Positions 9,065-11,240 of a stretch of 64,000 bases of DNA are shown one piece after another; position 1 is the first letter of the stretch, and every line of letters starts with the position of its first letter. This DNA comes from Girardia tigrina (lineage: Eukaryota). The position numbers and the translations under genes are program-made. Under the pieces are notes generated by a model that searched no databases, was not told the origin of the DNA, and saw nothing but the letters and a program-made list of their open reading frames with translations. The stretch spans positions 1 through 64,000 of the forward strand of contig MQRK01219561.1 in assembly GCA_001938485.1 (NCBI GenBank). Direction: 5' to 3'.

Positions 9065-9720
9065 TTACACCGCAGTAGTCAAGCTCATTCGGATTCCTTG
9101 AGGTTCGAGTTGATGCAACCGACGCAAGTAATCCGTCTGACTCTTGATCCCAAAATAAGTAATAGATACTGAATCCAGAATAGTTTGAGCCTGTTTCGTT
9201 CTATTATCGAAATCTAAATTAATAATTAGATGATCTAAAGATTTAAGTGAAAAGAAGTAGTGATCTCTTCGTGTTAATTGATAAACATGATCTCTTGTAA
9301 TGGATTTAGTCTTTTTATATAAGAGTTTTTGATCAGATATAGATACCAAGTTTCCACTTTTTAAATCTAAAGAAATACCTTCTAACTGTTGCAAAACATC
9401 CATACCAAGCAGTAATGATTCTGGGCAACTTTTTGAAATTAATACATTTGTTACAATAGTCTTGCCACCAATTTTTATTCACACTTGTACAGTTCCTTCA
9501 ATAGCGAGATAATGACCTGTAACTGATTGTAATCTTTCAATACAAGGTGCTAAATTTAATTTTTCAGATGCCAGAAGCATCTTTTCATCGACAATTGTGA
9601 CTGCTGAACNNNNNNNNNNNNNNNNNNNNNNNNNNNNNNNNNNNNNTAAAACAGTTATTGTTAATCTTTTACCGAATTTAGTTCTTACAGCAAAAACATA
9701 ATTACTTGGTAAACCCCATT
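9065..9720 (-). pseudogene. Retropepsin-like aspartic protease domain at the C-terminus of the glycoprotein ORF
   Basis: TITVL[gap]GSAVTIVD, LQSVTGHYLAIEG (flap), LLLGMDVL; the catalytic Asp falls in the N gap 9610-9646. Confidence 0.7.
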
Positions 9721-11240
9721 GATTTCTTATTTCAACTTCTCTTTTTTGTTTTTCCTCTGAATTTATAGTTTCCAGATTTGGATCGACGGGTTTCATTTCT
9801 TTAAGTTGTAAGAATGGATAGTAACTCGGTAATGGTCCAAAACTTGTCATATTGAATGGTGCACTTGAATTTAACATTTCTTGATTCTTCATCATTTGTA
9901 GTTGATTCTCGTAATCTTTCCAGTCGCTTTTCGATATTGTTGATGTCGTTAAATTACTATTACTTACAGTTTCATTTCCAATTTCGCTTTTTCTTCCGTC
10001 ACTTATTTCACTTGGATCACTGTTAGAACTGTCTGAAACAGATTCATATTGTACTTTTTTATTTCCTTTTTTAAACTTTTTACGACGTTTATTAATTTTC
10101 ATCGCTGATTTTAATATATTTATTTCTTTATGATGATGATGAATTATAAAAAATTTTGCTATCATAGGAATGCATCCAATTATTAATTTCCATGAAAATC
10201 CCAAAATTGTATATAATCTATATGTTGATAAAATTTGAGAAATAATAACTTTGGATATCGTAAAAATTACGTATATTCCGATTAAACCAGCACAGGCTTG
10301 GCCAAAAAATATAAATTTTCCCCATATTCTTTTCATCGTATTCATAGTGGCTCTTTGATAATGGTCTATACTCAAAAAGTTATCATCGTTTACTTTTCCC
10401 ACTCCGTAAGGTAAAACTGTATCAATAATTTCATTCATTACTCTCTCTTTTTTAGAAGGAAATAAGAGGTTTCGTCTTGAATCTTCGATTTCTTCTGGTG
10501 AATAAATACCAATTGTCGACATCTGATCTAAAAACGTGAAATTTATCAAATATTCTAATTTTGTCAAATCCAATTTTTCAATGCCTTTAACTTCTTTATT
10601 ATTTGGTAATGAAATCCACATTTCTGGTGTCAATCGATATAAGGGTGCTGTTATCTCATTGCATCGTAATTTTCTGGGTCTGGTTCTATTTTTCACCAGA
10701 ATTCGTGTTATAGGTTCTACAAATCTTAGTTCACCTTTATAGCTAACTGGAAGTTCGTTTGTGCACTCATTATGTTTTATTATTTGAACTGATATTTCTT
10801 TACATTTATAACTATACAATGCTTCGCCCATAATTCGTCCAAATACACCTTTTTCAGCGACTTATATTGGAGCGACAAGATTAGGATTTGTTACTACTAA
10901 AGCAATTCGATTTTGTAATATTTCTCGGTTCAATTTACAATCATTTAATATAACCTCACGATATAAATCTTCCACCGTTGATCGATAAAAATGGAATGCA
11001 AAATCCATTTTGTTGCTCAAATAATGGGATAGTTTTATATCAGCATTATGTACAACTGTAGCATCAGATATTTTTTCTTGAGAAACATATAGACCCTTGT
11101 AATTTATTGAATACATTGGTTTTCCACAACGGTTTTCTTTGTCTTTTCGAATAAATCTCATTCCATCTGCAAAAAGAGATGACATTAAAACTGTTGCTAA
11201 ATTCTTTTTTTGAACTGGTACTGCTTTTCGAGCTTTATGG
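9721..11240 (-). pseudogene. Chuvirus-like glycoprotein family 1, C-terminal half with transmembrane region and Ser-rich tail
   Basis: ORFs 10862-11251 and 9479-10831 in one frame separated by a stop; hydrophobic FIFFGQACAGLIGIYVIFTI followed by a basic stop-transfer segment. Confidence 0.78.

Follow-up and report, generated by a model that had tools for sequence, protein, structure and literature searches.

Retroelements are taken to need one protease. The closest described counterparts of the locus analysed here are the Burro elements of planarians, in which env sits in frame between gag and protease and pol follows env in frame, a GAG-ENV-POL Ty3/gypsy layout (text of PMC6431247). Burro proper is longer than 30 kb, with long LTRs and with BIR and ankyrin domains (PMC6431247). 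GAG-ENV-POL elements with a gB-type env are described from Nematoda, Bryozoa and Platyhelminthes (PMC13524379, citing Sacco 2022); nine flatworm elements appear in supplement 1 of that work, and the number of proteases goes undiscussed, the word ‘protease’ occurring once in its main text and nowhere in supplement 1. Parts of PMC10084718, PMC12440569 and PMC5408684 provide background on the field. Here we analyse a 64,000-nucleotide stretch of Girardia tigrina DNA (contig MQRK01219561.1; GC 28% by sequence composition), referred to below as the window. In our main reading, to which we give a probability of about two in three, it contains the junction of env and pol from a Ty3/gypsy element of Burro-like GAG-ENV-POL type, whose protease is the ordinary pol protease of the env family that we term family 1, lying in a dead, mosaic locus.

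A minus-strand frame extends from 11272 as far as the stop at 9065, and over 11240–9065 it encodes a glycoprotein–anchor–tail–retropepsin fusion without RT. The first-pass annotation had described this as one ORF; the domains are indeed fused in frame and end at 9065 with no RT, but stops at 10862–10864 (glycoprotein) and 9479–9481 (within the protease) interrupt the frame, which is not a single ORF. The fusion opens with the C-terminal half of a chuvirus-like (Monjiviricetes, gB-type) family-1 glycoprotein ectodomain (10330–11240; PF24664, E 2.5e-8 and 2.3e-47), beginning mid-ectodomain at ~11240 with its N-terminal half missing, and 95.7% identical in DNA to a second copy at 1906–2505. A hydropathy scan places the anchor at 10142–10315, as a transmembrane segment (~10312–10256, the sole segment of the fusion frame above the threshold of 1.9) followed by a weaker hydrophobic helix (10216–10142). 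Contigs were drawn from four public sequencing runs (X1–X4; 4 of 24 listed), with all or nearly all 30 bins covered. In all four runs, every contig that overlaps 9479–9481 reads the stop otherwise, so this stop represents decay of the present copy. The glycoprotein–protease copy is decayed and non-functional.

Between anchor and protease lies the cytoplasmic tail (9695–10141), 150 residues that begin basic and continue as a Ser-rich linker (18 Lys, 20 Ser), as first annotated. A low-complexity basic stretch ahead of a protease is also found in gag–pol, and the tail might have been the gag of a second element recombined behind env. We consider this exceedingly unlikely: the tail yields neither a CCHC knuckle nor a gag Pfam match, P0020 aligns to it collinearly and unbroken from the anchor through the protease (33% identity, E 1e-32, tblastn), and the polyproteins of relatives contradict it. 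The summed depth of X1 contigs, a weak measure that gives no copy number, stands at 550–605k over env, tail and protease and is flat across the tail.

The retropepsin (9340–9694) is disrupted by an assembly gap (9610–9646) covering its active site. The gap had been expected to hide about two to three codons; it comprises 37 N, or 13 codons, and keeps the frame. In P0004, which shares 84% identity across the tail and protease, exactly 13 residues separate the gap flanks and end in D-[TS]-G, the motif whose catalytic Asp is hidden by the N run in the window copy. With the active site missing, the window domain scores weakly with Pfam alone (E 0.12); a profile built from relatives recovers it at E 3e-17, and RVP clusters in Atlas (0.92) offer a further lead. 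A PDB sequence search gave no real match. The fold model (mean pLDDT 58, core 70–90) matches Ddi1 and XMRV proteases (best E 5e-4); as modelled the domain has a retropepsin (clan AA, A2-like) fold, and it carries the C-terminal G-x-D-x-L helix motif.

Relatives were sought at protein and locus level. Word-based protein searches returned nothing, or P0004 alone; locus searches found nothing usable in viral contigs, prokaryote genomes or a first metagenome scan, and two loci in a second. A protein search of 1.84 billion representatives gave 637 matches, and the listing covered 150 of them. To these we added three cluster members and the two loci; in the resulting set, 152 proteins had a match to the env C-end. 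Thirty of these reach at least 110 residues beyond the anchor, and a retropepsin is present there in 20 of the 30, including the 18 best-scoring; two pairs among the retropepsin-bearing proteins are near-duplicates. None of the 122 shorter env homologues has a retropepsin behind the anchor. Judged by these alignments, the env–protease fusion is conserved and not private to this copy, as the check in other copies proposed by the first-pass annotation anticipated. Looking up the clusters yielded no family-1 protein of greater length.

Each intact relative is encoded by one very long ORF. In L001 (3,703 aa), gag knuckles and a ubiquitin-like region precede env; two proteases follow, then RT, RNase H and integrase, and after these two further hydrophobic segments. 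In P0009, P0010, P0028 and P0051 a single protease separates env from RT. Gag CCHC knuckles occupy the same ORF in L001, P0008 and P0051 and are absent from the window fragments; P0012 has a Bcl-2 match. The database entry for P0009, a complete gag-env-pol polyprotein of invertebrate type, assigns it to a Flavobacteriaceae metagenome-assembled genome, probably through contamination. Downstream of the polyprotein, L001 (12085–13473) and L002 (10617–12107) each have a separate ORF, which encodes an exonuclease of the DEDD type (RNase_T, E 1e-3 and 1e-5) and is reminiscent of the ORF3 types known from LTR elements of rotifers (in part of PMC5408684).

A profile search of the relatives, leaving out the window rows and two near-duplicates, recovered 38 retropepsin domains, all 38 with D-[TS]-G; 35 were long enough for a tree. 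Ten of these 35 precede a β-rich domain leading into RT (the RT-proximal, or pol, class). Nineteen form a second group (moderate support, 88/90), never before the β-rich domain (0 of 19), which we define in this analysis as the accessory protease class of these polyproteins. Its C-end is a helix with a Trp in 18 of 19 domains, and none of the ten RT-proximal domains has a Trp at that place. With leave-one-out profiles the class came out right for 9 of the 10 pol domains and for 19 of the 19 accessory ones. Modelled at pLDDT 85.7, an accessory domain from L001 resembles the Ddi1 and HIV-1 proteases in fold (TM 0.6 by query, ~0.7 by target), and as modelled the accessory class is a true retropepsin fold.

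Proteases are often several to a chain. Polyproteins P0153, P0008, P0003, P0005, L001 and L002 contain two to seven retropepsin domains, some past the integrase. P0153 (4,844 aa) has seven in all, together with C2H2 fingers and ankyrin repeats; in L002 a signal peptide, an FN3-like region and an anchor fall between the second and third protease. Before RT, two to five proteases are present in five of the nine relatives that lead into RT (P0015, L001, L002, P0005 and P0153), and in the other four the first protease after env is the sole one. P0015 carries a duplicate of the pol-class protease in the env-proximal position. We are confident that these multi-protease arrays in relatives are real. 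In the literature searched we found no account of several proteases in one LTR-retrotransposon polyprotein; figures, Repbase, Grohme 2018 and Sacco 2022 may mention them.

Extra env-proximal proteases, as assigned by profile, do hold in several relatives, in a sequence class that differs from that of the window protease. The latter scores 63.7 bits with the pol-class profile versus 50.2 with the accessory profile, and its C-end 22.9 versus 7.4. P0016, 48% identical, gives 87.9 versus 64.6; P0004, which lacks the C-end, scores near-equally (55.3 versus 53.6). The domain lacks the conserved Trp that follows the C-terminal helix in the accessory class, and its accessory-profile score is not the higher one. 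The first-pass annotation had called for a phylogeny against the pol protease: the window protease groups with 8 of the 10 RT-proximal domains in a group of 13 rows (support 86/84), outside the 19-row accessory group, but a tree in which it joins the accessory side together with P0004 and P0016 is not rejected by an AU test (p 0.10). By profile score, then, the window protease scores as RT-proximal (pol) class, with moderate tree support.

The joint claim that the window protease is a dedicated env-tethered enzyme, one of the second-class retropepsins, and that it is undescribed appears doubtful to us. What it proposes is that the polyproteins cross the membrane several times, with the second retropepsin class placed in the cytosol one to four times behind env and again behind the integrase. 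These accessory proteases, with their catalytic motifs all intact, would release or mature each membrane-tethered segment, or cut host proteins; the env-tethered protease of family 1 would be one of them, retained even where RT is lacking.

The other protease of the window lies in a separate pol piece (11256–12812, minus; tblastn and profiles), consisting of a protease C-end, a dUTPase-like domain, RT and an RNase H cut short. A separate pol protease end had been annotated at about 12790; a C-end is present at 12812–12740, but it lies upstream of the family-1 glycoprotein in another piece of a scrambled locus, and the N-terminal half of this protease is missing. It scores 23.4 with the pol and 9.4 with the accessory profile. 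The β-rich domain follows this protease within 12812–12160 (own profile, E 1e-13) and does not follow the one at 9340; it has no Pfam dUTPase match, and the dUTPase-like label is taken from the text of PMC6431247. The RT has an internal deletion of ~65 residues that includes the YxDD region of P0010. Farther upstream is a second-family glycoprotein (13796–16438, minus; PF24664), 34–37% identical in protein to family 1, cut just past its anchor and interrupted by other repeats. Very high-copy repeats at 12830–12950 and 14345–14930 interrupt the pol protease and the second env; X1 depth there reaches 3.9 million, with many loose ends.

Read along the minus strand, the order is second-family env, unrelated DNA with a gap, protease C-end and β-rich domain, RT and an RNase H cut at 11256. 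From 11240 follow family-1 env, anchor, tail, protease, 89 codons, 460 non-coding bases and, from 8576, a broken integrase with zinc-binding, core and C-terminal parts (7475–8580, minus; rve E 8.5e-11, tblastn with P0005 and P0009). By tblastn the RNase H ends at residue 1740 of P0009 and the integrase starts at 1820, so the env–protease piece between them interrupts a nearly continuous pol; together with the mid-domain start of env, this means that the order is scrambled. All pol parts (protease, dUTPase-like domain, RT, RNase H and integrase) are present in the window, and the RT, RNase H and integrase pieces are 41–61% identical to gypsy-type polyproteins. Its assigned pieces show this locus to be a dead mosaic to which at least two families contributed, and the 12790 protease comes from another piece than the fusion, probably of the second family. 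Because the locus is rearranged and both window proteases score as pol class, the idea that this element has a second protease dedicated to env is unsupported.

The same order could instead reflect an assembly chimera of a very high-copy repeat. Nine N runs lie in the window, one of them inside the protease, and among the contigs listed none bridges the junctions at 11240–11275 or 8600; repeats were skipped there, and this is not evidence by itself. The env–tail–protease join is nevertheless conserved in independent proteins, and the RNase H-to-env junction (11240–11275, minus), read directly, has a short tandem duplication of ~16 bases, which would be more typical of repair than of assembly. 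A chimera is accordingly very unlikely in our judgement, and we retain a genomic mosaic.

Two proteases in family 1 itself, one env-proximal and a second next to RT, would restore a dedicated env-tethered enzyme. The 5/9 relatives with several proteases before RT, the multi-protease nature of the best env C-end matches (L001, L002 and P0006, 49–52%), the AU result and the missing dUTPase-like domain behind the window protease all favour it. Its pol-class score and lack of the Trp found in 18/19 accessory domains speak against it, as does its C-end, which is equally near the 12812 protease and the L001 pol protease (about half of 24 residues each). Depth and divergence also differ between the env–protease piece and the 12812 piece: X1 summed depth, which gives no copy number, falls to 43k over the domain after the 12812 protease (20–107k over repeat-free second-env parts), and among the contigs listed divergence is 2–3% over env versus 12–15% over 11990–12800. 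We judge a two-protease family 1 unlikely and continue to read the window protease as the family's ordinary pol protease.

Further features lie elsewhere in the window. A second family-1 fragment (382–2505, plus) comprises a weak ubiquitin-like region, a signal peptide and the N-terminal part of env, and ends before the anchor; its 382–1170 portion weakly matches the pre-env region of P0008, L001 and L002 (E 0.006–0.07). A second integrase fragment (26300–28146, minus; 95% DNA identity) runs into a signal peptide and an FN3-like domain; Atlas fn3 clusters at 0.94 over 27276–26980, a lead with recognition just under threshold. The succession integrase, signal peptide, FN3-like domains at 27330–26300 (minus) is that of L001, L002, P0005 and P0009, and an FN3-like ORF at 4795–5277 (minus) weakly matches the post-integrase module of L001. 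A 14-base motif with a purine run occurs in three AT-rich non-coding stretches, at 8763 (minus), 28920 (minus) and 4339 (plus). At two of these sites the motif precedes an integrase fragment, and it may act as a polypurine tract or as some other cis signal. Next to the integrase, at 6167–7392 (plus), a zinc-finger-like ORF overlaps with part of an actin-family sequence (Pfam Actin, E 2.5e-19); this may be a fragment of a host gene or cargo that was captured. The gypsy pol at 61681–63979 (minus), with RT, RNase H and integrase, is unrelated and 25–39% identical to the GAG-ENV-POL relatives. A host gene with an HR1 repeat (E 5e-6) is represented by exon-like ORFs at 37351–40241 (minus), with a ubiquitin-like ORF nearby.

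Past the protease, 89 codons stay open to the stop (9065–9334, minus; profile, protein matches, model). They contain no dUTPase-like domain (−2 bits on its profile, where the 12812 piece reaches 37.5), match nothing among the relatives' protein sequences compared, and are modelled at pLDDT <50 over most of their length. A diverged dUTPase-like domain was rejected, the −2 bits being below the best shuffles, as was the C-terminal tail of an FN3-anchor module, for which there was no match. Behind the stop is an AT-rich non-coding stretch (8600–9064, minus; GC 0.26) common to other samples, which X3 and X4 contigs span with 17–18 gap letters versus 0 in the listed env pieces.

This ending allows a spreading non-autonomous subfamily, in whose ORF env and protease would be followed by just the 89 codons, with the stop and 3′ non-coding sequence behind them, and which would be mobilised in trans. 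Its protease would be pol-derived and now the last domain, in agreement with our main reading on origin; the two differ on whether the RT-less ending is maintained. An X4 contig from an RNA library, which does not show expression, bridges the protease end and the 89-codon tail (9172–9367); two others, one each from X4 (8646–9144) and X3 (8643–9108), span the 9065 stop into the non-coding stretch. This RT-less ending therefore exists elsewhere too. The 89 codons stay open whereas the next 460 bases are indel-rich, and X1 summed depth, again only a weak measure and no copy number, is still 204k and 123k over 8616–9223. That is a drop to about a third or less behind the protease, however, with mixed-bin depth fitting a step near 9310–9340, and the X3 contig leaves the window sequence at 9108. 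A maintained RT-less subfamily is quite unlikely on this evidence, and we prefer our main reading.

Across intact relatives, gag and the accessory domains come first, and an internal signal peptide then leads into the gB-type glycoprotein with its anchor. Behind a linker, pol follows as protease, dUTPase-like domain, RT, RNase H and integrase, and the chain continues with a second signal peptide, FN3-like domains and another anchor (full order in L001, L002, P0009, P0005 and P0153). With such a chain, the internal signal peptide would send env into the ER and separate it from gag, and the anchor would return the chain to the cytosol, where pol would be made tethered to the env tail. Pol might then reach budding particles via env and not via a gag–pol fusion. 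Clustering of env could dimerise the protease, which would cut itself, RT and integrase free, and the second signal peptide, after the integrase, would yield a separate FN3-like membrane protein. In the window, deletions and template switches may have placed the RT/RNase H piece upstream of env and replaced the sequence past the protease. Against a Burro-like junction with an ordinary pol protease stand the 89 codons in place of a dUTPase-like domain and the X4 contig that joins them to the protease end, the AU p of 0.10, the near-equal scores of P0004 and the env-proximal pol-class duplicate of P0015.

Little work has addressed this layout, in which the envelope tail, and not gag, is the fusion partner of pol. 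That relatives carry up to seven intact proteases, in two sequence classes, matters more than this decayed copy. If confirmed and undescribed, these arrays would give a direct route to studying the processing of a viral polyprotein that crosses the membrane several times, and the packaging of pol where it is not fused to gag.

Among known systems, the giant Ty3/gypsy elements Burro and GYPSM1 come closest, with a mononegavirus-like env in frame between gag and protease (PMC6431247); the window likewise has a mononegavirus/chuvirus-like env in frame directly upstream of its protease. The ubiquitin-like and BCL2-like domains before env and the dUTPase-like domain between protease and RT described for Burro are seen in the relatives, and decayed fragments are described there for one planarian species (PMC6431247). 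Unlike Burro, the window has fragments only, with no BIR or ankyrin domain between env and protease, and the text of the Burro description names one protease and no FN3 module (PMC6431247). The GAG-ENV-POL ‘ancient errantiviruses’ with an HSV/gB-type env share gene order and env class with the window, as far as their main text and supplement 1 describe them (PMC13524379). The first-pass annotation had set the fusion outside standard LTR-element envs, but GAG-ENV-POL is already in print (in the texts of PMC6431247 and PMC13524379). The env–anchor–protease fusion is a known layout, to which this copy adds a decayed member. Anakin, of BEL/Pao type, is likewise described as an LTR retrotransposon that captured a chuvirus-like glycoprotein (in parts of PMC7642597 and PMC10084718). 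The window differs from it in having a gypsy-type pol and an env that precedes the protease, with neither a BEL/Pao pol nor an env downstream of the integrase. In Anakin env follows pol and, to our knowledge, no protease stands behind the anchor. Finally, the modelled folds of the window and accessory proteases resemble Ddi1/XMRV-type and HIV-1-type retropepsins; unlike those enzymes, the window domain is predicted to be tethered to an envelope tail, and the two classes described here differ in their C-terminal end.
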